Position numbers and translations under genes: made by a program. Shown in pieces: positions 14,408 through 34,396 of a stretch of 44,936 nucleotides of DNA (positions within the stretch are counted from its first letter, which is position 1; each line of letters opens with the position of its first letter). Under the pieces are notes generated by a model. It was not told the origin of the DNA, searched no databases, and saw only the letters and a program-made list of their open reading frames with translations. Origin of the DNA: Myxococcota bacterium (lineage in GTDB: Bacteria > Myxococcota_A > UBA796 > CAJQPC01); assembly GCA_023150845.1 (NCBI GenBank), contig JAKLKD010000022.1, forward strand, positions 1 to 44,936, written 5' to 3'.

Positions 14408-14619
14408 GCGCACGCGCGATTCCTCGGGGGGGTCGATCATGGCCTTCCCCCCGGTGGGATCGGCTCCTGGTGTACTTTTTTGAGCGGCTAGATCGGGGTG
14501 TTGCACGGCAGGGCTGAAGAACATGGGCTATGATGCGAAGCCGTTCACGTCGAGTTGACAACCACAGCTGTCACACCCGACTTGGCGCTCTCCGGCCACC
14601 TCTCTTCGAGGCGCTCAGC

Positions 14620-17115
14620 ATGAAGTCCCTCCCCGTTCTCTCCCTCGGCGTCATCGCGGTGGCCCTCGCTGGCTGTCGCTCCAGCACGGGCACCCCCGTC
14701 GTGTTGACCTACCCCGTCATCGAGGTCAGCTCCAAGTGGGTTGAGTTCGGCCTGACAGAGCACGGTGAGGCCGTCACGCGCACCTTCACGATCTCCAACG
14801 ACGGCGACCTGCCGCTGGGGATCTCCGACATCCGCGAGGGCGGCGGTATGGACGGTGATTTCACGATCACCTTCGACCCCACGCTCAAGTCCTGCCCCGA
14901 GACCGCCAGCGGCGACACGGGCGAGCCCGAGGGCAAGTCCGGCGGCAACACGCCCCCTGGGCCGGTCATCTCCGCGGACACGACGACCGTCGACTTCGGC
15001 AACGTCGCCTCGGGCAAGACCGAGGTGAAGTACATCACCCTCTACAACACGGGTGACGCCGACCTCTCGATCACCAAGGCCGCCATCGCGCCGTCGGACA
15101 GCCCCTTCTCGATGGTCGTGGACCCCACGGGCACCACCATCGCCAAGGGCGGCACCTCGGCCGTCGTGCTTCAGTACTCGCCCACGACCACGTCTGGCGA
15201 CGAGGCCTCCTTGGTCATCGTCAGCAACGGCACCCCGGCGGTGCTTGAGGTCGCGCTGAAGGGCAACATCGGCGGCGAGCCCATCGACACCGACACCGGC
15301 ACCGGCGGCGACTCCGGCGGCGGCGACTCTGGCGGCGGCGACTCCGACGACCCGGGCCCCGATCCCGGCGACGGCCAGGTGCTCTTCACCTTGGAGAAGG
15401 GCTGCACGATGCCCGTCGACGTCACCTTCTCGCCGGTGAGCGTCGGGGATGTGTACGGCTCGGTCATCATCGAGACCAAGACCCAAGACCGCGAGGACAC
15501 CGAGGATCCCGAGTACTGGGCCGACCTCGACAACTCCCGCATCGTCGTCTACACGAAGGGTGAGGCCGAGAAGGGCGAAGGTCGCGCCATCGTGACCCCC
15601 CGCTCCGTGCCCTTCGGCTCGGTCTGGACGGGTGAGGAGGAGGTCCGCTACATCCGCGTGCTGAACAGCGGCGACGGCGACCTCACGCTCACCGCGCCCA
15701 CCTTGGACTCCACCTGCGACACCGCCTTCAGCCTCACCTACTCCTTCGCCGAGGCCGAGGACTCCACGAAGGTGCTCGAGTCGGGCAAGAGCTCGCTCAT
15801 CGAGGTCACCTTCGTCCCCGAGGACCAGAAGAGCGCGTACTGCACGGTCTACGTCAACTCCGACGACAGCTCGAACCCCTCGGTGCCGGTCTACCTCCAG
15901 GGCAACAACGGCACGGACCCGGACAACGTCCCGCCGACGGTGAAGATCCGCTCTCCTGAGCCTGGGTACATGCACAACAACCCGGGCCCCATCGAGATGG
16001 AGCTCAACGTCTTCGACAAGAACCAGCCCGCGACCTCGCTCTCTTGTAAGGTCTACAGCTCGCTGAACGTGCTGGCCAACGTCGCGGACTGCACGCCGAC
16101 CGACGAGTCCGGCCACGTCTTCTTGACGGTGCCGACGGAGGACTTCAACCCCGGCGTTGACACCCTCCTGGTGCGGGTCACCGACGCCTCGGGCATCCGC
16201 ACGACGGCCTCCTTGTCGATGATCATCAACGCCTCGTACCCCAGCAGCGATGACGACGGCGACGCCTTCGGCACCGACAGCAGCGAGCTGGTGACCGACT
16301 GCGACGACAACAACCGCGACACCTACCCCAACGCGGCGGAGATCTACGACTCTCTGGACAACGACTGCGACAGCATCGTTGACGAGGGCACCATCGGCTC
16401 TGACGACGACGGTGACACCTTCTCCGAGAACGACGAAGACTGCGACGACACCGACGAGGACACCTACCCCGGCGCCCCTGAGTCCCCGGACTACAAGGAC
16501 AACGACTGCGACGGCACCATCGACGAGAACACCACGCTCAGCGATGATGACGGCGACGGTTACGCCGAGGTGAACAACGACTGCAACGACCTCGACGAGG
16601 AGATCAGCCCCAGCGCCGTTGAGATCTGCGACAGCGTAGACAACGACTGCAACGGCCTCGTCGATGACGCCTGCCTCGCCCTGGACTCCGAGCCGCTCAT
16701 CGTCGGCGGCATCGACATGAGCCAGACCGCGGTGGAGGTCGGTGACACCGTCCAGCTCTCGACCTTCATCTACGACGCCGACGGTGAGGCCATCTACTTC
16801 ACCTGGACGACCGAGGGCGGCACCTCCGCGGGCACCACCTCCTCGACGCTGTCTTGGACCGCGCCGGAGACCCTGGAGAACAACGACGGCGAGATCTACC
16901 AGATCTACCTCGTCGCCCAGGACGACTCCGGTCACCAGGTCTGGGACTTCGCCCGTGTGGCGGTCTACCCCGAGGGCGCCTTGTTCAAGGACTTCGTAGA
17001 GATCGTCTACACCGAGGAGGAGACGGGCTGCTCGTCCTCCAGCGCTGGCGCTGGCCTCGGCCTCGGCCTCATGGGGCTCGGCCTCGCGCTGGCTCGCCGC
17101 CGCCGCCAGAGCTGA
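14620..17115 (+). CDS. Large cell-surface lipoprotein: N-terminal lipobox, ASH/choice-of-anchor-D-like β-sandwich repeats, three DNDCDx(I/L)VDE Cys-Asp repeats, and a C-terminal MYXO-CTERM sorting signal
   Basis: The signal peptide is MKSLPVLSLGVIAVALAGC (lipobox LAGC). Repeated motifs FG.V..G.....T.TI.N.GD..L.I (e.g. FGNVASGKTEVKYITLYNTGDADLSI) occur. A GGDSGGGDSGGGDSDDPGPDPGDG linker follows. The Cys-Asp repeats include DTYPNAAEIYDSLDNDCDSIVDEG, DTYPGAPESPDYKDNDCDGTIDEN and VEICDSVDNDCNGLVDD. The C-terminus is GCSSSSAGAGLGLGLMGLGLALARRRRQS, matching the MYXO-CTERM pattern of Cys, then hydrophobic, then RRRR. The start is ATG 14620 rather than the listed 14530. Confidence 0.85.
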   Translation: MKSLPVLSLGVIAVALAGCRSSTGTPVVLTYPVIEVSSKWVEFGLTEHGEAVTRTFTISNDGDLPLGISDIREGGGMDGDFTITFDPTLKSCPETASGDTGEPEGKSGGNTPPGPVISADTTTVDFGNVASGKTEVKYITLYNTGDADLSITKAAIAPSDSPFSMVVDPTGTTIAKGGTSAVVLQYSPTTTSGDEASLVIVSNGTPAVLEVALKGNIGGEPIDTDTGTGGDSGGGDSGGGDSDDPGPDPGDGQVLFTLEKGCTMPVDVTFSPVSVGDVYGSVIIETKTQDREDTEDPEYWADLDNSRIVVYTKGEAEKGEGRAIVTPRSVPFGSVWTGEEEVRYIRVLNSGDGDLTLTAPTLDSTCDTAFSLTYSFAEAEDSTKVLESGKSSLIEVTFVPEDQKSAYCTVYVNSDDSSNPSVPVYLQGNNGTDPDNVPPTVKIRSPEPGYMHNNPGPIEMELNVFDKNQPATSLSCKVYSSLNVLANVADCTPTDESGHVFLTVPTEDFNPGVDTLLVRVTDASGIRTTASLSMIINASYPSSDDDGDAFGTDSSELVTDCDDNNRDTYPNAAEIYDSLDNDCDSIVDEGTIGSDDDGDTFSENDEDCDDTDEDTYPGAPESPDYKDNDCDGTIDENTTLSDDDGDGYAEVNNDCNDLDEEISPSAVEICDSVDNDCNGLVDDACLALDSEPLIVGGIDMSQTAVEVGDTVQLSTFIYDADGEAIYFTWTTEGGTSAGTTSSTLSWTAPETLENNDGEIYQIYLVAQDDSGHQVWDFARVAVYPEGALFKDFVEIVYTEEETGCSSSSAGAGLGLGLMGLGLALARRRRQS

Positions 17116-20166: not shown

Positions 20167-20640
20167 TCAGCGGACGTTGCGCAGCTCGCGACGGTCGGCC
20201 TTGGCCTTGAGGTCTTCGCGCTTGTCGTGGAGTTTTTTGCCTCGGCCCAGCGCGATCTCGATCTTGGCCCAAGGCCCCCGGAAGTACATCGCGATGGGGA
20301 CCACGGAGAGGCCCTTCTCCTGAACCGCCCGGCGGATCTTCTCGATCTCTGCGGGCCGCATCAGGAGCTTTCGGACTCGCTCAGGGAGGTGGTTGTTGTC
20401 GCTGCCGTGGCTGTATGGCGCGATGTGGGCGGCGTGTAAGAACGCCTCGCCGTCCTTCACCTTGACGTAAGCGTCGGTGATCTGGGCCTTGCCGTTGCGC
20501 AGGGACTTCACCTCGGTCCCGAGCAGCGACATGCCCGCCTCGAAGCGGTCGGTGATCTCGAACTCGAAGGTCGCGCGCCGGTTCTGGGCGATCGGGCGCA
20601 CGGTCTTCGGCTTCTGGGGCTTGTTGGTGGGGTTGCTCAT
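20167..20640 (-). CDS. smpB: SsrA-binding protein SmpB
   Basis: ATFEFEITDRFEAGMSLLGTEVKSLRNGKAQITDAYV…GEAFLHAAHIAPY…KLLMRPAEIEKI is conserved along the whole length. Confidence 0.9.
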   Translation of the reverse strand: MSNPTNKPQKPKTVRPIAQNRRATFEFEITDRFEAGMSLLGTEVKSLRNGKAQITDAYVKVKDGEAFLHAAHIAPYSHGSDNNHLPERVRKLLMRPAEIEKIRRAVQEKGLSVVPIAMYFRGPWAKIEIALGRGKKLHDKREDLKAKADRRELRNVR

Positions 20641-20736
20641 GGCCCTGTCCGTCTTTGGGCCTGCATAACCGACTCTCCACGCGGCGGCGCGCTCGACGGC
20701 GCCTCGCCGCGTTATGCAGGGGCCGAGAGGTGGAAC

Positions 20737-21600
20737 GTGACGCTCACTTTGGCCCTGATCTCATCACTCTACGCCTTCGCAGAGGACACGCCGGTGGTCG
20801 AGGCCCCGGCGCCGGTGGAGGCCCTCTTCGAGACCGCGGCCCCGGCGAAGCCGACGGTCGTGTTCATCCACGGCCTCTACCTCAACGCGAGCTGCTGGGA
20901 CGGCTGGCGGGCCCAGTTTGAGGCCCAGGGCTACGACACCCTCGCGCCGGAGTGGCCAGGCCATGAGGGCTCCCCGGCGGAGCTCCGCGCCAACGTGCCC
21001 GAGGCCCTCAACACCCTGAGCTTTGAGGAGCTCGTCGCCCAGCACCGGGAGCTCGTCGCGGGCCTCGACGCGCCGATCCTCATCGGGCACAGCATGGGCG
21101 GGCTCATCGTGCAGCTCCTGCTGCAAGAGGGGCTCGGCCGGGCCGGGGTCGCCCTGCACTCGGCGCCGCCCAAGGGCCTCACGAGCCTCGCCCCGGCGTT
21201 CTTCCGCAGCAACGCCCCGGTGCTCAAGCCCGGCTCGGCCCCGATCCTCCTCACCCCGAAGCAGTTCCGCTTCGGCTTCGGGAACTACCTGGATCGTGAC
21301 GAGGCCCTGGCGCTCTACGAGATGAGCCTCGTGCCCGAGGCCAAAGGGGTCGCCAAGGGGCCGCTGACCGACGCGGCGGCGGTGGACTGGGCGAAGGAGC
21401 GCGCGCCGCTGCTCATCGTCGCGGGCGGCGAGGACCACGTCATCCCCGCGGGCCTCAACGAGCGTATGGCGCGCCATTATGAGGCGTCCCCCTCCCGCAC
21501 CGACCTCGTCGTGATGCCGACGCGCACCCACGGCACCCTCACCCAGCCCGGCTGGGAGCAGGTCGCCGCGGACGTGCTGAGCTGGCTCGCCGGGCTCTGA
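20737..21600 (+). CDS. Secreted α/β-hydrolase (GHSMG nucleophile elbow) with an N-terminal signal peptide
   Basis: The signal peptide is MTLTLALISSLYAFA. The fold motifs are VVFIHGLYLN, ILIGHSMGGLIV, and an acid/His region (GGEDHVIP…THGTL). A GAGGTGG lies upstream of GTG 20737. Confidence 0.8.
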   Translation: MTLTLALISSLYAFAEDTPVVEAPAPVEALFETAAPAKPTVVFIHGLYLNASCWDGWRAQFEAQGYDTLAPEWPGHEGSPAELRANVPEALNTLSFEELVAQHRELVAGLDAPILIGHSMGGLIVQLLLQEGLGRAGVALHSAPPKGLTSLAPAFFRSNAPVLKPGSAPILLTPKQFRFGFGNYLDRDEALALYEMSLVPEAKGVAKGPLTDAAAVDWAKERAPLLIVAGGEDHVIPAGLNERMARHYEASPSRTDLVVMPTRTHGTLTQPGWEQVAADVLSWLAGL

Positions 21601-21960
21601 GCGCTCCACGGCGCTCCACCGGGGCGGTCGTCACTCCACGGCGCTCCACCGGAGCACCCGCGGGCCGCCGTCACTCCACGGCGCTCCACCACGCCCCCTG
21701 GATCCACCCCCTCGGGGCGGCGCGGGCCCGGCCCTGACGCGGCGGTGGATCACCTCGGTGGATCACGATCCACCGCGCGCCGCGGCGTTGGATCCAGGCC
21801 ACAAGGGGCCAAGGATCGTCAAGAAATCAAGCTGGAAACCACATTAAGGGCATCCCCTGTCCGGGCGGTGCGTGCGGGGGATCCACCAGAGATCCGGCTC
21901 TTGGGGCGTTTTGCCCCTTTCGCCTTGAACGTGGATCAAAATGGAGTAGAGTGGAGAGGT
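21599..21960. repeat. Dense array of GTGGA(G/T) / GGTGGATC repeats upstream of mraZ; putative MraZ operator boxes
   Basis: There are three direct copies of (g/t)c(g/a)CTCCACggcgCTCCACC at 21601–20, 21631–50 and 21671–90. On the minus strand these read GTGGAGcgccGTGGAG, a 10-bp period. On the plus strand TGGATCCACC occurs at 21699 and GGTGGATCAC occurs twice (21744, 21757). The second copy is embedded in a perfect palindrome GGTGGATCacGATCCACC (21757–74). TGGATCCAGG is at 21789, GGATCCACC at about 21887, and GTGGATCA plus GTGGAG sit within the putative promoter at 21931–56. Confidence 0.6.
21925..21952 (+). promoter_or_regulatory. Putative σ70-type promoter for the mraZ/dcw operon (TTGAAC-N16-TAGAGT)
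   Basis: The −35 element TTGAAC is at 21925–30 and the −10 element TAGAGT at 21947–52, about 58 nt upstream of the mraZ ATG. GTGGAT/GTGGAG boxes lie in the spacer and at −10, consistent with autorepression. Confidence 0.4.
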
Positions 21961-22009
21961 AGGGTACAGAAGGGTGCGCGGTGGTGCACTCGAAGGCCCG
22001 GATGGGTGA

Positions 22010-22462
22010 ATGCTCGGAGAACGCTGCCAGGTCTCGACGTCTTTGGACGACAAGGGTCGCATCGCTCTCCCTGCGCGGCTGAGGCACAAGATCAATGACG
22101 CTGGGATCGAATCATTGGTGCTCACGTGTGTGGACGGAGGAATCCGGGCGTTCACCCCGGATTATTTCGCCCAGCGCGTCGAGGGTCCGTTCCAGGACCG
22201 AGACCCATTCGATCCCGTCGCCCAAGCATACTTCCACGCGGTGCTCGCTGACGCCGAAGACTGCGCCGTCGATCCGCAAGGCCGCCTGCGCATCCCCAAC
22301 CGGCTCCGCCAAGACGCTGGCCTCGACCGCGAGTGTGTGCTCATCTCCGTCATGCAGTGGATTGAGCTCTGGGATCCGGCGCGCTGGGAGGCCACTCGCC
22401 AGCAGGCCATTCACGAGTACGCCCGGGCTCGGCAGCAGGCGCTCCCCGCCGCGAAGGGGTGA
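22010..22462 (+). CDS. mraZ: Transcriptional regulator MraZ
   Basis: The protein has two DxxxR-like MraZ half-domains, STSLDDKGRIALPARLR and AVDPQGRLRIPNRLR, and sits first in the dcw cluster. Confidence 0.85.
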   Translation: MLGERCQVSTSLDDKGRIALPARLRHKINDAGIESLVLTCVDGGIRAFTPDYFAQRVEGPFQDRDPFDPVAQAYFHAVLADAEDCAVDPQGRLRIPNRLRQDAGLDRECVLISVMQWIELWDPARWEATRQQAIHEYARARQQALPAAKG

Positions 22463-22466
22463 GCGC

Positions 22467-23375
22467 ATGACGAGCTTCCAGCATGAGACGGTCCTGGGGC
22501 CTGAGGTCTGCGCGCTGCTCGCCCCCCGCGACGGCGGCGTCTACCTCGACTGCACCTTGGGCGGCGGCGGCCACGCCGAGCGGCTCCTCGACGCCTCGGG
22601 CCCCACGGGCCGGGTGATCGGCCTCGACCGCGACCCGGCGGCCCTCTCCGCCGCCTCCGCGCGCCTCGGCCACTTCGGCGAGCGCTTCACCGCCGTGCGT
22701 TCGACCTTCGGCGACCTCCGCGCGGCCTTGGATGAGGTCGGCGTCACCACCGTAGACGGCCTCGTCGCCGACCTCGGCGTGTCGAGCCCCCAGCTTGACC
22801 AGGCCGCCCGCGGCTTCTCGTTCATGCGGGACGGCCCCCTGGACATGCGTATGGACCCCGACGCCCCCACCTCCGCGGCGGACCTCGTCAACGGCCTGCC
22901 GGAGGCCGAGCTCGCGGACCTGCTCTACGGCCTCGGTGAGGAGCGCCAGTCGCGGCGGATCGCCCGGGCCATCGTGGCCGCGCGGCCCATCACCGGCACG
23001 GCGCAGCTCGCCCAGGTCATCGCCGGGGCGATGGGCGGCCCCCGGGAGCGTATTCACCCCGCCACCCGCTCGTTTCAGGCCCTTCGCCTCGCCGTCAACG
23101 ACGAGCTGGGCGAGCTGGACCGGCTCTTGGCGGCCCTGCCGGGCTGCCTGAGCGTGGGCGGTCGGGCGGCGGTCATCTCGTTTCATTCTTTGGAAGACCG
23201 TCGGGTCAAGCAGCGCTTTCGGGCGCTCGCGGGCTTGGACGCCGAGAAGGACGCCTACGGGCGGTCCCTCGGCGTGGCGACGGTGAGGCTCGTCACGAAG
23301 AAGGCCGTCGAGGACTCGGGGTCAGGGAACCCCCGGGCGCGCTCGGCGAAGCTCCGGGTGATCGAGCGGGTGTAG
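22467..23375 (+). CDS. rsmH: 16S rRNA (cytosine1402-N4)-methyltransferase RsmH (MraW)
   Basis: HETVLGPEV…GGVYLDCTLGGGGHAERLL, DGLVADLGVSSPQLD, RGFSFMRDGPLDMRMD and ISFHSLEDRRVKQ are all RsmH blocks. The ATG at 22467 follows the mraZ stop. The listed ORF from 22095 is an out-of-context extension. Confidence 0.9.
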   Translation: MTSFQHETVLGPEVCALLAPRDGGVYLDCTLGGGGHAERLLDASGPTGRVIGLDRDPAALSAASARLGHFGERFTAVRSTFGDLRAALDEVGVTTVDGLVADLGVSSPQLDQAARGFSFMRDGPLDMRMDPDAPTSAADLVNGLPEAELADLLYGLGEERQSRRIARAIVAARPITGTAQLAQVIAGAMGGPRERIHPATRSFQALRLAVNDELGELDRLLAALPGCLSVGGRAAVISFHSLEDRRVKQRFRALAGLDAEKDAYGRSLGVATVRLVTKKAVEDSGSGNPRARSAKLRVIERV

Positions 23376-23790: not shown

Positions 23791-25880
23791 ACAAGCCCGT
23801 CGCCGACGATCTGAACGCCTGGCTCAGCGCGATGCTCGCGCCGGATCCCGGGCCCGTGGATCGGGCGACGCTCATGGCCCGGGCGCGCTTCCGCGCCTCG
23901 CTCATCATGGTCGGCGTCATCTTGGGCTACGTCGTGCTCGCCCTGCGCGCCGTGCCCCTGATGCTGATGCCCGATGACCGGCTCCAGGCCAAGGCCGCGA
24001 CGCAGTTCCAGGCCGCGGTGGAGGTTGAGGCGCCTCGGGGGGACATCATCGGCCGAGACGGCACGGTGCTCGCCACCTCCGTCGAGATGCCCGCGCTGCG
24101 CGCGGACCCCTCCAAGCTCACCGATGAGCAGGTCGGCCCCTTGGCCCGGGAGCTCGCGGGGCTCCTGCACCTCGACGCCGCGGACCTCGCCGAGAAGCTC
24201 GGCCGCCGGGAGCGCCGCGACATCCTCCTCGCCAACCAGATCTCCCCCGACGCCGTCGAGACCGTCGAGAAGCTCGCCCCGGGCGCCTTGTGGGTGGACT
24301 ACCAGTCCACGCGTTTTTACCCGGGCCGCACCCTGGCCTCGTCGCTCCTGGGCATGGTCGGCCAGAACAACCAGGGCCTTGAGGGCTTGGAGCGCAGCCT
24401 CGACAAGCAGCTCCGGGGCAGCACCTACCGCTTCGTGCAGCAGCGTGACCGCCGCGGGCGCAACATCTCCACGGCCGGGGACGCCCGGGCCCGGGCCCAC
24501 GCCGGGGACTCGGTCACCCTCACCGTCGAGCCCTTCATCCAGCGCGCCGCTGAAGACGCCCTGGACCAGATGATGATCACGTCGGCGCCCGCGGCGGCCA
24601 TCGCCGTCGTCATGGACGTGAAGACCGGCGAGATCCTCGCCATCGCCAACCGCCCCAACGCGAACCCCAACGACGTCTCGACCATCGACGTCTCGGCGAT
24701 GCGTAACCGCGCCGTGGCCGACGCCCACGAGCCCGGCTCGGTGCTCAAGCCCTTCGTCGTCGGCCTCGCCGTCGATAAGGGCATCACCAAGGCCGAGGAC
24801 CTCATCGACTGCGAGGGCGGGAGCTGGCGCGTCGGCAGCAGCATCATCAACGACGACCACCCCCACGGCGTCGTGACGCTCTCCGAGGTGGTGAAGTACA
24901 GCTCCAACATCGGCACCGCGAAGCTCGCCTTCGCGCTCGGCGCTGAAGAGATGATGGAGGGGCTCAAGCGCTTCGGCTTCACCCAGCCGACGGGCCTCAA
25001 CCTCCCCAGCGAGGTCTACGGCTTCTTGCGGAACCCCAAGGGCATCCGCCCTATCGAGCTGGCGACGACGGCGTTCGGCCAGGGCATGACCGCGACCGCG
25101 GTGCAGCTCGCCGCGGCCTTGGCGGCGGTTGGCAACGACGGCGTGCGGATGAAGCCCTACCTCGTCTCCGAGGTGCGGGACCGCCTGGGCTACGTCCGCC
25201 TGCGCAACCGCCCGGTGCGGGTGGAGCGGGTCATCTCCGAGGAGTCCGCCGACAGCCTCGTGAAGATGATGATCACCGTCTTGGAGACCGGCGGCACGGG
25301 CACGAAGGCGCGCCCCGAGGGCTTCTCCGCCGCAGGCAAGACCGGCACGGCCCAGAAGGTCGTGGACGGCCACTACTCGGCCACGGCGCGGGTGTCGTCC
25401 TTCATCGGACTCGCCCCGGCGAACGACCCCCGCCTCGCCATCGTGGTCATGGGCGACACGCCCACCATCGGCAGCAAGTACGGCGGCATCGTCTCCGGCC
25501 CGGGCTTCTCGCTCATCGCCACCCGGGCCCTGCGTTACCTCGGCGTGCCCGAGGACGTGCCCATCGAGCCCAAGCCTAAGGTCGCCCCGCCGCCCCCGGC
25601 GCTCGGCCCCGACGGCTTGCCCCTGCCGGTGATCCCCCCGCCCATGGCGATGCCCGCCCCCGTGAAGGTGGCGCCGGGCCCCGCCCAGCTCACCTGGCTC
25701 GCCGACGGCCGCATGACCGTTCCCGACCTCACCGGCCGCTCGATGCGTGACGTGCTCGTCGCCGTCGATGGCGCCGGGGTTGAGGTCCGCCTCGTCGGCT
25801 CAGGCCGCGTCGTCTCTCAAAACCCCGCGCCGGGCTATGCCTTGGCGGCGGGGGACCGGCTGGAGGTCGTGCTGCAATGA
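23787..25880 (+). CDS. ftsI: Peptidoglycan D,D-transpeptidase FtsI (PBP3) with a Pro-rich linker and a C-terminal PASTA-like domain
   Basis: The transpeptidase motifs SVLKPF (SxxK), YSSN (SxN) and KTGTAQ (KTG) are present, as is the PBP dimerisation domain. The C-terminus reads PKPKVAPPPPALGPDGLPLPVIPPPMAMPAPV then TVPDLTGRSMRDVLVAV…VRLVGSGRVVSQNPAPG (PASTA-like). Confidence 0.9.
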   Translation: MNKPVADDLNAWLSAMLAPDPGPVDRATLMARARFRASLIMVGVILGYVVLALRAVPLMLMPDDRLQAKAATQFQAAVEVEAPRGDIIGRDGTVLATSVEMPALRADPSKLTDEQVGPLARELAGLLHLDAADLAEKLGRRERRDILLANQISPDAVETVEKLAPGALWVDYQSTRFYPGRTLASSLLGMVGQNNQGLEGLERSLDKQLRGSTYRFVQQRDRRGRNISTAGDARARAHAGDSVTLTVEPFIQRAAEDALDQMMITSAPAAAIAVVMDVKTGEILAIANRPNANPNDVSTIDVSAMRNRAVADAHEPGSVLKPFVVGLAVDKGITKAEDLIDCEGGSWRVGSSIINDDHPHGVVTLSEVVKYSSNIGTAKLAFALGAEEMMEGLKRFGFTQPTGLNLPSEVYGFLRNPKGIRPIELATTAFGQGMTATAVQLAAALAAVGNDGVRMKPYLVSEVRDRLGYVRLRNRPVRVERVISEESADSLVKMMITVLETGGTGTKARPEGFSAAGKTGTAQKVVDGHYSATARVSSFIGLAPANDPRLAIVVMGDTPTIGSKYGGIVSGPGFSLIATRALRYLGVPEDVPIEPKPKVAPPPPALGPDGLPLPVIPPPMAMPAPVKVAPGPAQLTWLADGRMTVPDLTGRSMRDVLVAVDGAGVEVRLVGSGRVVSQNPAPGYALAAGDRLEVVLQ

Positions 25881-26613
25881 CGGCACCCCTCCGCCAAACA
25901 AGCTCTCAGAGGTCCGAAGGCGTGCTCTTGCGCTTTGCGGATGATCTGCCGATGGTCGGGTCTACGCTGCCGCGTATGCTCGACAGAGCCCCGAGCGCAA
26001 TCCCCGCGCAGAGGGTGTGCCTTGATGACGCCAGCCCCGCTTTTGGCCCGTCAAGGACGCTGTCGCTGCTCTCGCTGCCCGCCGAAACCCTGCTGAAACC
26101 TGCTGATGCTGTCGCTGACGCTCCGCGAGGATGTCCTCGCGCGCGCGGCCACGTCGGCCCGACCGTCCTTCACGCTCCCGCCCCGCAGACAGGCTCCGCG
26201 CGTCGCAGGTCGGGGGTGCGGGTCCGGCTCACCAGTCTTCGCTGGTGCTCGCCTCGGGGGTCTAGCGCGCTGTTCTGGCGCGCCACCCTCCGCCGTGGGT
26301 TGTGCTGGTCCGTCGCCCCGCCCTGTCGCTCCCCGCTGAGAAAACTGCTGCTGCTGGTCTGGAACCCCGGCCTCTTCGCGCTGGGGCCTCGCGGGGTGGG
26401 AGCGTTTGAAGGGGGCGAGACACGATCGGACCTCCATTGGGCAGGTGTTGGTGGCGCCTCTCTGCACGCTGAGCCGTATCTCCAATCCGCGTGACTCCCT
26501 GGCAGTACGCAGAGGGGCGCCACTCACCGCCGCCCGAACTTCTCCGCCGCTTCTCTTGATCCGCTGACCTCCTCTCCTTCGTCGCGACCCCCCCTCCTCC
26601 CCGCTGAACGCTG

Positions 26614-30544: not shown

Positions 30545-31860
30545 GCATGGCCGCCGCCAACGCCGTGATGCCACGACGGGTCACCGTGCTCGGGGCTGGG
30601 CTCTCGGGCCGGGCCGCGGCGAGACTCGCGCTGCGCCTGGGCGCCGAGCGCGTGACGCTCACCGACCTCAAGGCGGACTCCGAGGGCGTCGAGGGCGCCC
30701 GGGCGGTCTTCGGCCGCCACGACGACGCCGACCTCACCGAGGTGGACCTCCTCGTCGTGTCGCCGGGGGTTCCCGCCGCCGCGCCGCCGGTTCGCCGGGC
30801 CCAGGCCGCGGGGGTGGACGTCATCGGGGAGCTGGGCTTCGCCTGGCGCTTCTTGCCGCGCCTGCCGACGGCGGCCATCACCGGCACGAACGGCAAATCG
30901 ACGGTGACCCACTTCACGGGGCAGCTCCTGCGCGGCGCCGGGCGGCGGCCCTTCGTCGGCGGCAACCTCGGCACGCCCCTCTGTGAGGCCGTCGGCGGTG
31001 ACTTCGACAGCCTCGTCGTCGAGGTCTCCTCCTACCAGCTTGAGCTGGCTGGAGACTTCGCGCCGGACGTCGGGGTCATCCTCAACCTCACCCCCGACCA
31101 CCTCGCCCGGCACGGCACCATGGAGGGCTACGCCGCGGCGAAGGCGAAGCTCTTTGACCACATGACCCCGGACGGGCTCGCCTATGTCCCCAATGGAGAC
31201 ATTCTCCTGCGCGCGGCCTGTGAGGGCAAGGCGGGCCAGCGGCGCTGGCTCGACGGGGAGCCTGGGGTGAACCTCAGCGACGATGGCGCCTTCGCCCTCA
31301 TCGAGGGGGAGCGCCTGGATCTCTCCGACCTGCGCGTGATGGGGCGCATCAACCGCTGGAACGCCGCTGTCGCCGCCGCCTTGGCCCGGGGCCTGGGCGC
31401 GCCCCTCGGCGCCCTCGACCTCTCGGCGCTCACGGCCCTGCCGCACCGGATGCAGCCCGTCGCCGAGCGGGACGGCGTGCTCTGGATCAACGACTCCAAG
31501 GCCACGAACGTCGACGCCGCCCTGGTGGGCTTGGCGAGCGTCGATCGCCCGGCGGTGGTCATCCTCGGCGGCCAAGGCAAAGAGGGCGCGGACTACGGCC
31601 TGCTCGTCCCGGCGCTCCAGCGCGCGGCGGCGGAGGTCATCGTCTGCGGCGGCAGCGCCCCGGAGATCTCTCGGGGCCTCGGGGCTCAGCCGCACCACGT
31701 CGTCCCCGGCCTCGCCGACGCCGTGGTCTTGGCCCGTCGCCTCGCCCGGCCCGGCCAGGCCGTGCTGCTCACCCCGGCCTGCGCCTCGTTTGATGAGTTC
31801 AACAACTTCGAGCACCGCGGGGCCGTCTTCGCGCGGCTCGCCCAGGAGGCCACGACATGA
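30541..31860 (+). CDS. murD: UDP-N-acetylmuramoylalanine--D-glutamate ligase MurD
   Basis: It has an N-terminal Rossmann region (VTVLGAGLSGRAAARL) and AITGTNGKSTVT. The start is GTG 30541 or ATG 30547. Confidence 0.9.
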   Translation: MSMAAANAVMPRRVTVLGAGLSGRAAARLALRLGAERVTLTDLKADSEGVEGARAVFGRHDDADLTEVDLLVVSPGVPAAAPPVRRAQAAGVDVIGELGFAWRFLPRLPTAAITGTNGKSTVTHFTGQLLRGAGRRPFVGGNLGTPLCEAVGGDFDSLVVEVSSYQLELAGDFAPDVGVILNLTPDHLARHGTMEGYAAAKAKLFDHMTPDGLAYVPNGDILLRAACEGKAGQRRWLDGEPGVNLSDDGAFALIEGERLDLSDLRVMGRINRWNAAVAAALARGLGAPLGALDLSALTALPHRMQPVAERDGVLWINDSKATNVDAALVGLASVDRPAVVILGGQGKEGADYGLLVPALQRAAAEVIVCGGSAPEISRGLGAQPHHVVPGLADAVVLARRLARPGQAVLLTPACASFDEFNNFEHRGAVFARLAQEATT

Positions 31861-33011
31861 AGGCCCGCCGTTTTGACCTGCCCCTCTTGGGGCTCGTGGT
31901 CGTGCTGCTCATCCTCGGCCTCGTCATGGTGCAGTCCGCGTCGGGGCCCGTGGCCGCGGACCGCCTGGACGACCCCTGGTACTACGTCAAGCGCCAGCTC
32001 GCGGCCATCATCGTGGGCATCGGCGGGGGCGTGACCATCGCGTTCACGCCGTATGAGTGGCTGCGGCGTTACGCCTGGGCCGCCTACGCCGCGGTCATCG
32101 TCGGGCTCATCTTGGTGTTTGTGCCGGGGCTCGGCCACCGGGTCAACGGCGCGTCACGCTGGATCGGCATGGGCAGCGTGAACCTCCAGCCCTCTGAGCT
32201 CGCGAAGCTCGTCTGCGTCTTGTGTATGGCGCACTTCATCGACGAGAAGGGCGGGCGCCTGGACGACGTGAAGAAGGTGCTGCTCCCGGCCTTGGCCATC
32301 CCTGCGCCCCTCATGCTGCTCATCGTGATGGAGCCGGACTTCGGCACGACGGTCATCGTCGGCGGCATGGCGTTCATCACCTTGGTCGTCGCCGGGCTGC
32401 GCACACGCTTCATCTACGCCCTGTTCGGCGCTGGCGTCACCTTAGGCGCCTTGGTGATGGTCGCCGAGCCCTACCGCCTCAAGCGCCTACGATCCTTTAT
32501 GGATCCTTGGGCCGACGCCGCGGGGGCTGGCTACCAGGTCATCCAGTCGATGATCGCCTTCCACTCCGGCGGGCTCAGCGGGCGCGGCCTCGGCGAGAGC
32601 CAGGCGAAGCACCTCTTCTTGCCGGAGCCCTGGACGGACTTCATCGCCGCCGTGCTCGGTGAGGAGCTCGGCCTCGTCGGTGTGCTCGCGCTGCTCGTGC
32701 TCTACAGCCTGCTCATCTGGCGCGGGATGCACATCGCGCGGCAGGCCGATGACCTCTTCGGCGCCTTGTTGGCGACCTCCTTGACCGCCGCAATCGGGCT
32801 GCAGGCCTTCTTCAACCTCGGCGTCGTCATGGGCGTCGTGCCGCCGAAGGGCCTCGTGCTGCCCTTCATGTCCTATGGCGCCTCGGCCATCGTCGCCCAG
32901 CTCTTCGCCGTCGGCCTGCTCCTGAACGTCTCGGCGAACAGCGCCGCCGGGGCGCGCGCGCCCACCATCTACCGCCCGAGCGCGACGGCGGAGGGGGTCC
33001 TGGCCCGATGA
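31857..33011 (+). CDS. ftsW: Peptidoglycan glycosyltransferase FtsW (SEDS family)
   Basis: It is polytopic, with SEDS motifs (SMIAFHSGGLSGRGLGES, LPEPWTDFI). Its position between murD and murC supports FtsW over RodA. Confidence 0.85.
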   Translation: MKARRFDLPLLGLVVVLLILGLVMVQSASGPVAADRLDDPWYYVKRQLAAIIVGIGGGVTIAFTPYEWLRRYAWAAYAAVIVGLILVFVPGLGHRVNGASRWIGMGSVNLQPSELAKLVCVLCMAHFIDEKGGRLDDVKKVLLPALAIPAPLMLLIVMEPDFGTTVIVGGMAFITLVVAGLRTRFIYALFGAGVTLGALVMVAEPYRLKRLRSFMDPWADAAGAGYQVIQSMIAFHSGGLSGRGLGESQAKHLFLPEPWTDFIAAVLGEELGLVGVLALLVLYSLLIWRGMHIARQADDLFGALLATSLTAAIGLQAFFNLGVVMGVVPPKGLVLPFMSYGASAIVAQLFAVGLLLNVSANSAAGARAPTIYRPSATAEGVLAR

Positions 33012-34396
33012 TGTTCCGTGGAAAGGTGCGCCAGGTTCATTTTGTCGGCATCGGCGGCTCGGGCATGAACGGGCTCGCCGAGGTGCTGCTCACCTTGGGC
33101 TTCGTCGTGTCCGGCTCGGACATGAAAGAGAGCGCCACCGTCGCCCGGCTGCGCAGCCTCGGCGCCCAGGTGTTCATCGGGCATCGGGCGGAGAACATCG
33201 TCGGCGCCGACGTCATCGTGCGCTCGACGGCGGTGCCCGACCACAACCCCGAGCTGAGCGCGGGCCGCGCCCAGGCCGTGCCCGTCATCCCCCGGGCGGA
33301 GCTCCTCGCCGAGCTCATGCGCATGAAGTACGGCGTCGCCGTCGCGGGCACCCACGGCAAGACGACGACGACCTCAATGGTCGCCCAGATCCTCGGCGCG
33401 GCGGGCCTCGACCCCACCGTGGTCATCGGCGGCAAGCTCGACGCCTTGGGCTCCAACGCCCGGCTCGGCCAGGGGGAGCTCCTCGTCGCTGAGGCCGATG
33501 AGTCCGACGGCAGCTTCTTGTTGTTGGCGCCGACGGTGGCGATCATCACGAACATCGACCCCGAGCACCTCGACCACTACGGGGACTTCGCCAGCTTACG
33601 GCAGGCCTTCATCCAGTTCGCCAACAAGGTGCCCTTCTTCGGGTTCACCGTGGCCTGCCTCGACCACCCCGTCGTCCAGGAGAGCCTCCCCGAGCTGCGC
33701 CGCCGCGTCGTGACCTACGGCCTCACCCGCCAGGCCGACCTGCGCGGCGACGACATCCGCTGCGAGGGCCTCGAGACGAGCTTCGCCGTGCACCGCGGCG
33801 GGGAGACCCTGGGCCGCCTGCGCCTGATGATGCCTGGGCGGCACAACGTGCAGAACGCCTTGGCGGCGACGGCGACGGCTCTGGGCCTCGACATCCCCTT
33901 TGAGCAGATCGCCGCGGGGCTGGACGGCTTCACCGGGGTGCAGCGCCGCTTCACCGTCGTCGGCGACGCCGGCGGCGTCATGGTCGTGGACGACTACGGC
34001 CACCACCCTGAAGAGATCCGCGCCACGCTCGCAGCCGCCCGGGCGGGCTTCGCCCAGCGCCGCATCATCGCGGTCTTCCAGCCCCACCGCTACACCCGGG
34101 TGCGCGACCTGCACGCCGACTTCTGCCGGGCGTTCAACCGCGCGGACCTCGTGCTCGTCTGCCCCATCGCCGCGGCGGGGGAGGCGCCGATCGAGGGCAT
34201 CGACCACCAGAGCCTCGCCGAGGGCCTGCGCCGCTACGGGCACCGCGGCGTCGAGCGTGTGGATGACCTCGACGAGGCCTTGGCCCGGCTCTCAGACATC
34301 GTTCAGCCCAACGACCTCGTGATCACCCTCGGCGCGGGCAACGTGAACTCCCTCTGCGCGCCGCTGGTTCGGCGCCTCGGCGGGGAGCCTCGTTGA
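33008..34396 (+). CDS. murC: UDP-N-acetylmuramate--L-alanine ligase MurC
   Basis: HFVGIGGSGMNGLAEVLL and AVAGTHGKTTTTSM are present. The gene directly follows ftsW with no murG in between. Confidence 0.9.
   Translation: MMFRGKVRQVHFVGIGGSGMNGLAEVLLTLGFVVSGSDMKESATVARLRSLGAQVFIGHRAENIVGADVIVRSTAVPDHNPELSAGRAQAVPVIPRAELLAELMRMKYGVAVAGTHGKTTTTSMVAQILGAAGLDPTVVIGGKLDALGSNARLGQGELLVAEADESDGSFLLLAPTVAIITNIDPEHLDHYGDFASLRQAFIQFANKVPFFGFTVACLDHPVVQESLPELRRRVVTYGLTRQADLRGDDIRCEGLETSFAVHRGGETLGRLRLMMPGRHNVQNALAATATALGLDIPFEQIAAGLDGFTGVQRRFTVVGDAGGVMVVDDYGHHPEEIRATLAAARAGFAQRRIIAVFQPHRYTRVRDLHADFCRAFNRADLVLVCPIAAAGEAPIEGIDHQSLAEGLRRYGHRGVERVDDLDEALARLSDIVQPNDLVITLGAGNVNSLCAPLVRRLGGEPR

Follow-up and report, generated by a model that had tools for sequence, protein, structure and literature searches.

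The stretch of DNA analysed here, referred to as the window, comprises positions 1 to 44,936 of contig JAKLKD010000022.1 (assembly GCA_023150845.1) of a Myxococcota bacterium; it has a GC content of 71%, and its closest public relatives are uncultured Myxococcota metagenome-assembled genomes. The region under study is the 409-bp spacer (21601-22009) between an alpha/beta-hydrolase gene and mraZ, which carries, besides an MraZ-type operator at the putative mraZ promoter, a distal, inverted and phased array of GTGGAG boxes that may serve as auxiliary MraZ operators (Table 1). On the minus strand near the array lie an rsmE-like gene, prmA, a gene for a VKOR-DsbA fusion and smpB, and on the plus strand the hydrolase gene is followed by the cluster of division and cell-wall genes (dcw) in the order mraZ, rsmH, an ftsL-like open reading frame (ORF), ftsI, murE, murF, mraY, murD, ftsW, murC, murB, ddl and ftsQ. 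The boxes thus stand directly 5' of the lead gene of this cluster, the position of an MraZ operator. Within the cluster, ftsW is directly followed by the murC-like ligase gene, with murG absent between them (31857-34393), and an unassigned 205-amino-acid ORF (25877-26491) lies between ftsI and murE.

Table 1. Coordinates of the sequence features in and around the hydrolase-mraZ spacer
Feature	Position	Strand	Description
smpB	20167-20640	-	
smpB-side remnant	20675-20702	-	CTCCAC (20675-80) and gcgcTCGACggcgc (20689-20702); decayed box context
alpha/beta-hydrolase gene	20737-21600	+	
Distal module 1	21604-21620	-	CTCCACGGCGCTCCACC, two minus-strand GTGGAG boxes 10 bp apart; begins 4 nt past the hydrolase stop codon
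Distal module 2	21634-21650	-	Identical 17-mer CTCCACGGCGCTCCACC; 30 bp from module 1
Distal module 3	21674-21690	-	Identical 17-mer CTCCACGGCGCTCCACC; 40 bp from module 2
GATCCACC box	21701-21708	-	Invariant in four close relatives
GGTGGATC box	21744-21751	+	Inside the first CGGTGGATCAC copy
Inverted repeat CGGTGGATC-AC-GATCCACCG	21756-21775		Perfect 9-nt arms, 2-nt gap, two GATC sites
TTGGATCC	21788-21795	+	Aligned position in relatives is GTGGATCC
AT-richer 59-bp block	21809-21867		100% identical in four species-level relatives; 3' end is CCTGTCCGGG
GATCCACC box	21880-21887	-	Further GATC follows at 21891
Putative mraZ promoter	21925-21952	+	-35 TTGAAC (21925-30), 16-nt spacer, -10 TAGAGT (21947-52)
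Proximal operator	21931-21956	+	GTGGAT (21931), ATGGAG (21941), GTGGAG (21951), 10-bp period; fills the promoter spacer, overlaps the -10
Fourth proximal box GTGGTG	21981-21986	+	Offset +30, in register with the other three; within the presumed 5' leader
mraZ	22010-22462	+	150 aa, lead gene of the dcw cluster; Pfam MraZ, 1.9e-22

Three zones of boxes between the hydrolase gene and mraZ

In the literature, an MraZ operator has three GTG(G/T) boxes, in some mycoplasmas four, that follow each other every 10 bp and are bound by neighbouring subunits of the opened MraZ ring through Lys13, Arg15 and Arg86 (PMC12957436), and the Bacillus subtilis repeat is made up of three GTGG[A/T]G motifs that are 4 nt apart (bioRxiv 10.1101/2022.02.09.479790). 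A preliminary description of the DNA studied here had presented the boxes of the spacer as one array of at least 12 between 21599 and 21960. The boxes are real, each element having been verified by repeat finding and direct reading, and we count 14 in that interval with an extra, in-register GTGGTG at 21981 beyond it, but they are not homogeneous: under a strict orientation rule they fall into three zones, namely distal inverted pairs (zone A), a GGATC-centred middle (zone B) and proximal direct boxes (zone C).

By its layout, zone C is a classic MraZ operator. It holds contiguous direct repeats at a 10-bp period, starting at 21931, 21941 and 21951, plus the box at 21981. As had been proposed, boxes (GTGGAT, ATGGAG and GTGGAG) occur between the TTGAAC and TAGAGT elements of the putative mraZ promoter. 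This TTGAAC-16-TAGAGT pair has 8 of 12 matches, below the threshold of the promoter scan, which called no promoter; the TTGAnn-16-TAnnGT pattern that encloses the boxes is nevertheless kept in all relatives, and the skeleton TTGAnn-GTGGnn-nnAAATGGAGTAnnGTGG is invariant in relatives down to 70% MraZ identity. Furthermore, relatives L018, L023, L025 and L017 (loci of the comparative set, referred to by L numbers) carry a GTGGAG-N4-GTGGAG pair in the mraZ leader (-57 to -25), about 20 nt past the third box, and at the corresponding place in the window (21971-21986) this leader pair has decayed to GGGTGC and GTGGTG.

Zone A lies about 250-400 bp upstream of mraZ and is composed of three exact copies of the 17-mer CTCCACGGCGCTCCACC, each with two CTCCAC units 10 bp apart, in agreement with the three direct repeats reported in the preliminary description. 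Read on the minus strand, all six units are GTGGAG, with only two contiguous boxes per module, and all six share a 10-bp register (offsets 0, 10, 30, 40, 70 and 80). The GTG(G/T) or GTGG[A/T]G core of known MraZ sites is thus present as GTGGAG in the six distal boxes and as GTGGAT, ATGGAG, GTGGAG and GTGGTG in the proximal ones. The distal unit, GTGGAG-N4-GTGGAG, is identical to the MraZ-binding repeat of the literature, and its hexamer is common to the proximal operator. The distal cluster (21604-21690) and the proximal cluster (21931-21986) are 240-380 bp apart, so that at the level of sequence there are two separated clusters of putative sites for one multivalent regulator, the oligomeric state of MraZ being taken from the literature.

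Compared with the rest of the 44.9-kb window, the spacer is strongly enriched in these motifs. GTGGA/TCCAC occurs 13 times against 0.88 expected (P = 1e-11), GTGGAG 7 times against 0.34, GTGGATC 6 times against 0.06 (6 of the 12 copies in the window) and GATC 9 times against 1.9. The spacer is the top hotspot of the window for GTGGA and also for GGATC, and exact GTGGAG-N4-GTGGAG is confined to it; within the window, the motif is not frequent elsewhere.

Zone B is built differently. It consists of isolated GGTGGATC and GATCCACC boxes, off the 10-bp register and inside a run of nine GATC sites; the first GATCCACC box, at 21701, is off register, its distance from the last distal box being 18 bp, and further GATCCACC copies occur at 21767 and 21880. 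Copies of CGGTGGATCAC are present at 21743 and 21756, the second at the start of an inverted repeat that had been called a perfect palindrome: its 9-nt arms are indeed perfect, but the central AC is not self-complementary. Within this repeat, GGTGGATCACGATCCA is invariant in four relatives. The BamHI-type boxes noted earlier were also located, as TGGATCC at 21699 and 21789. The AT-richer block that follows is identical in the four species-level relatives although their synonymous sites differ by about 20%, and CCTGTCCGGG recurs at the equivalent place in L004, L025 and L013. The block might be a second promoter, an UP element or the target of a bending protein; an IHF site was considered and rejected by eye, the WATCAANNNNTTR consensus being unmet.

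Conservation of the array in related lineages

The comparative set comprised 31 loci from genome and assembly collections, classical Myxococcus MraZ loci apart. Synteny is conserved, with VKOR-DsbA and smpB on the minus strand followed by mraZ-rsmH-ftsL-ftsI on the plus strand. The orthologous regions retain the repeats: the three-zone layout is found in lineages with 70-100% MraZ identity as well as in L008-L010 (55-56%), in all about a dozen related Myxococcota lineages, and L006, L011 and L030 have distal inverted pairs without the GATC cluster. The size of the array varies, with about 10 inverted boxes in L025 and about 7 in L004.

In 16 non-redundant smpB-mraZ spacers, compared with their own flanks, GTGGAG tops the 6-mers (61 observed, 6.7 expected) and GTGGA the 5-mers (84 observed, 17.3 expected). 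Spacings between boxes on the same strand show sharp maxima at 10, 20, 30/31 and 40/41 bp, which is the pattern that an oligomer repeating every 10 bp should give. A search for strict double boxes yields 38 within 520 bp upstream of mraZ (13.2 kb altogether), compared with a single one in 115 kb of flanking sequence. Moreover, their orientation follows a rule, since in about 11 lineages the distal double boxes are all on the minus strand and the proximal ones all on the plus strand. Whether the distal boxes read GTGGA or GTGGG goes with the flavour of the proximal ones (Spearman correlation 0.66 with P = 0.008, uncorrected for phylogeny).

A footprint test was made among four species-level relatives (the window and L001-L003). 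Third codon positions of rsmH differ by 21-23%, the proximal 200 bp by only 4-6.5%, and distal box positions are 78% invariant as opposed to 32% of non-box positions (Fisher P = 8e-11). In 11 of 12 lineages, the mraZ start and the nearest distal pair are separated by 270-354 bp.

The hydrolase cassette, divergent smpB and the GGATC motif

In the window, L002 and L003, a hydrolase cassette of about 950 bp is inserted between smpB and the boxes (window 20641-21600, with junctions at about 20690-20702 and 21601-21604). The cassette is absent from L001 and all more distant relatives, and in every relative that lacks the hydrolase gene, the inverted boxes are next to the divergent smpB, reading GTGGAG in the smpB direction. 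Judging from this distribution, the distal boxes ancestrally flanked divergent smpB, and the hydrolase gene is a later insertion at the edge of the array. On the smpB side, the insertion has left behind the decayed box context listed in Table 1 (20675-20702). The upstream end of the cassette carries GTTATGCAGG (20711-20720), which repeats in inverted form the CCTGCATAAC of the smpB leader (20660-20669).

The cassette junction coincides exactly with the first CTCCAC box at its 5' edge, which, with the identity of the three 17-mers and a module copy number that differs (2, 3, about 3.5 and about 2.5) among genomes with 99-100% identical MraZ, could point to the distal modules being a non-functional by-product of tandem duplication or slippage, or a scar of cassette recombination. 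Conservation argues strongly against this, since inverted pairs of the same orientation and period extend down to 52-58% MraZ identity and the boxes are conserved where spacers and flanks have diverged; furthermore, L001, L004 and L025 have multi-module arrays without the cassette. We therefore regard a by-product as very improbable.

The proximity to smpB raises a different reading, namely that the distal boxes are the operator of a divergent smpB promoter under bidirectional MraZ control, and that in the window they are stranded as a remnant or have been re-used. The strict orientation rule suits such a promoter-directed role, as does the position of the nearest pair in L001, L004, L013, L018 and L023, about 35-55 bp ahead of the smpB start codon as estimated. 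Between the pair and a TAG-type -10-like element that is conserved at smpB, however, the distance ranges from about 18 to about 110 nt, which leaves no fixed promoter geometry. In the three cassette genomes, the insertion point is precisely where the leader of smpB meets the first box; smpB retains only about 95 bp of upstream DNA there, and its promoter therefore works without the array. The boxes nevertheless persist in these genomes, conserved within diverged surroundings and more numerous than in L001, and their retention is therefore independent of smpB. A role directed at mraZ is ranked above control of smpB because the distance on the smpB side is variable and that on the mraZ side stays at 270-354 bp; we consider the smpB reading unlikely. 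In the AT-richer lineages L028, L031, L006 and L030, a smpB-side box, CTCCCACTT, lies only about 17-30 nt from the smpB start. Although this closeness also speaks for a link with smpB, the box could overlap the ribosome-binding region (GGGAG) of the gene rather than its promoter. A mirrored minus-strand promoter beside the distal boxes was sought by eye, and no -35/-10 pattern was found.

For the middle of the spacer, the comparison brings out a second motif. GGATC/GATCC ranks second among the 5-mers of the 16 spacers (74 observed, 15.3 expected), and in relatives it is enriched on its own, mostly unattached to GTGG, for example as CGGATCGCGG in L004, L025 and L009 and as GCGATCGC in L018 and L023. 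GGATC zones span 21701-21934 in the window, -344 to -248 in L004 and -279 to -226 in L025, and are present in the spacers of L018, L023 and L009; GATC counts in L018, L023, L004 and L009 are 7-9, compared with 0.5-2.3 expected. L004 has three GGATCC sites at a 10-bp period, GGATCRCG and GATC doublets 2-7 bp apart recur in relatives, and in L008-L010 the GATC positions are kept while their flanks have diverged. In the lineage of the window, 5 or 6 of the 8 non-proximal GATC sites are fused to GTGG, giving GGTGGATC. Since GGATC is independently enriched and unfused in relatives, the GTGGATC boxes are probably composites of two motifs, and the middle zone carries a second, partly overlapping signal that is probably read by another factor or by methylation. 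The footprint of this motif is short, essentially (G)GATC(C), which is more typical of methylation or of a short-site reader than of a long operator.

These observations bear on a broader alternative, in which a factor other than MraZ reads the non-proximal boxes, or part of them: a response regulator binding to 10-bp direct repeats, a dimeric regulator on the inverted repeat GGTGGATC-AC-GATCCACC, or a system specific to GATC, by adenine methylation or through a GATC-binding protein, which would couple dcw transcription to another signal. The off-register middle boxes fit this alternative, and there is precedent for other regulators at mraZ promoters, in that MtrA binds the mraZ promoter in Dietzia (PMC9602371). 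This second factor upstream of mraZ could serve as a model for the GGATC zone, the comparison being one of regulatory position and not of motif. The distal pairs, on the other hand, match the MraZ repeat exactly and have their hexamer and period in common with the proximal operator; the GATC flanks carry so little extra information that no long protein site can be defined, and no candidate factor can be named. A Pfam scan of 30 window ORFs found no DNA methyltransferase, about half a dozen large ORFs at the 3' end being unscanned. Overall, we take a non-MraZ reader of these boxes to be possible, though doubtful. The additional factor suggested in the preliminary description is plausible for part of the region. 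The idea that RsmH (MraW) might act as a GATC DNA methylase was set aside as pure speculation, the one paper on the matter, PMC6863780, reporting no such motif.

Several other identities were considered and rejected. A replication origin, suggested by the GATC density, the CCAC boxes and the divergent genes, is not accompanied by a GC-skew switch near 21.7 kb, and by eye, GGATCCACC agrees with the DnaA box TTATCCACA in no more than 6 of 9 positions. For a structured RNA or riboswitch, an Rfam scan of 21000-22600 returned only a chance-level microRNA match (E = 0.92). No hydrolase terminator was found on the plus strand. A dispersed repeat of the repetitive extragenic palindromic or miniature inverted-repeat transposable element type was dismissed on the distribution of exact double boxes given above.

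Elsewhere in the window, a 1070-amino-acid ORF on the minus strand (4593-7802) matches the Major Vault Protein shoulder domain (3.8e-19) and, more weakly, Vault repeat families over the whole protein, with no single stretch significant; it is a bacterial vault-protein-like gene. A 1257-amino-acid Ser/Thr protein kinase is encoded at 793-4563, and an 861-amino-acid protein with MopE metal-binding motifs and HYDIN/DUF1573 Ig-like domains at 14530-17112.

Proposed auxiliary MraZ operators and control of the dcw cluster

The MraZ encoded in the window aligns with the Mycoplasma genitalium and M. pneumoniae structures, and its K15, R17 and R92 occupy the contact positions, equivalent to K13, R15 and R86 of M. 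genitalium in the alignment to PDB 9qlr. The motifs DXXXR at D13-R17 and D88-R92 are, together with K15, invariant in the clade. In M. genitalium, neighbouring subunits of the opened ring bind cooperatively to a four-box operator with GTG(G/T) cores at a 10-bp period, as in the proximal operator here, and the residues that make the contacts are conserved (PMC12957436; PDB 9qlr, 9qlg), the window protein being about 30% identical to M. genitalium MraZ over the aligned part. Unlike the window, M. genitalium has four contiguous direct boxes without distal or inverted sites.

The closest match to the repeat unit is that of B. subtilis Pmra, where the identical unit stands at the promoter of an mraZ-led operon and MraZ represses through it (White et al., bioRxiv 10.1101/2022.02.09.479790). 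In B. subtilis, however, there is a single triple direct repeat, with only 13 double repeats genome-wide (bioRxiv 10.1101/2022.02.09.479790), whereas here four proximal, six inverted distal and 5 or 6 isolated GGTGGATC-type boxes lie within 390 bp. For Escherichia coli Pmra, the work of Eraso et al. (2014), to which PMC12957436 and PMC6863780 refer, likewise describes dcw autorepression via 10-bp direct repeats, there with three TGGGN boxes in one orientation. A TGGGG flavour is used by L021, L026 and L005, all without the distal array. The view of the preliminary description that the array exceeds the classic arrangement and uses both orientations therefore holds against the published three- and four-box operators (PMC12957436; bioRxiv 10.1101/2022.02.09.479790). 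In size it far exceeds the MraZ control regions known from any bacterium studied, and it is a conserved, unusually elaborate version of a known operator type.

From these sequence comparisons, we lean towards the distal modules being auxiliary MraZ operators that act on the mraZ-dcw promoter, and we infer that MraZ would bind them. In the mechanism that we envisage, MraZ on the four proximal boxes at the -35/-10 would block RNA polymerase, which is classic autorepression, and the six distal boxes would be bound by further subunits of the oligomer. These boxes might then bridge to the promoter operator through the same oligomer, forming a repression loop, or they might keep a local pool of MraZ beside the promoter; either would sharpen autoregulation of the division and cell-wall operon. 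Whether looping via one multivalent oligomer or local MraZ concentration applies is a matter of speculation. Bridging is made plausible by published properties of MraZ, which is an octamer or dodecamer of which a four-box site engages only four subunits, makes DNA-bridging fibres in vitro and tolerates longer spacers at high concentration.

Several points weigh against auxiliary MraZ operators. The MraZ operators described so far consist of three or four direct repeats in contiguous order, with no inverted or distal sites on record, and two-box probes were bound more weakly by the M. genitalium protein. The short-spacer relatives L005, L007, L021, L026 and L029 keep the proximal operator only, and the distal array is therefore not essential for MraZ function. 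As to helical phasing, the distance between the distal modules and the promoter differs by 11 and 13 bp among close relatives, a comparison of four sequences only that speaks neither for nor against it, and the footprint alignment may be partly anchored on the boxes. Finally, the middle GTGGATC boxes have 13- and 18-bp spacings, off the 10-bp register, and may not be MraZ sites because GGATC is enriched alone in relatives.

Looping between a promoter operator and auxiliary operators is well known from lac (O1, O2 and O3), gal (OE and OI), deo and lambda (OL-OR). These systems resemble the one proposed here in that a multivalent regulator has, besides its operator at the promoter, additional ones a few hundred base pairs off; they differ in that the distal sites of the window are inverted arrays of short boxes and not a second palindromic operator. 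To our knowledge, looping by MraZ has never been demonstrated, and our full-text literature searches returned no report of MraZ looping, of inverted distal MraZ boxes or of a link between MraZ and smpB.

A more elaborate model, which we hold to be quite unlikely, would have an MraZ oligomer clamp the distal modules and the promoter into a loop of about 250-350 bp, whose GATC-dense interior would act as a switch read by methylation or by a GATC-binding factor. The dcw cluster would then be gated by the level of MraZ and by a replication-linked or other signal, and the original role of the distal boxes would have been to link smpB, the trans-translation gene, with the regulator of division.

MraZ is among the most conserved bacterial regulators, and why it forms a ring of 8 to 12 subunits when only three or four touch the operator is a puzzle. 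The second, inverted and phased array described here offers a testable use for the spare subunits, in bridging, looping or local storage. Furthermore, the GGATC zone suggests that control of the dcw cluster may have multiple inputs, and an ancestral coupling of the dcw regulator to smpB is possible.

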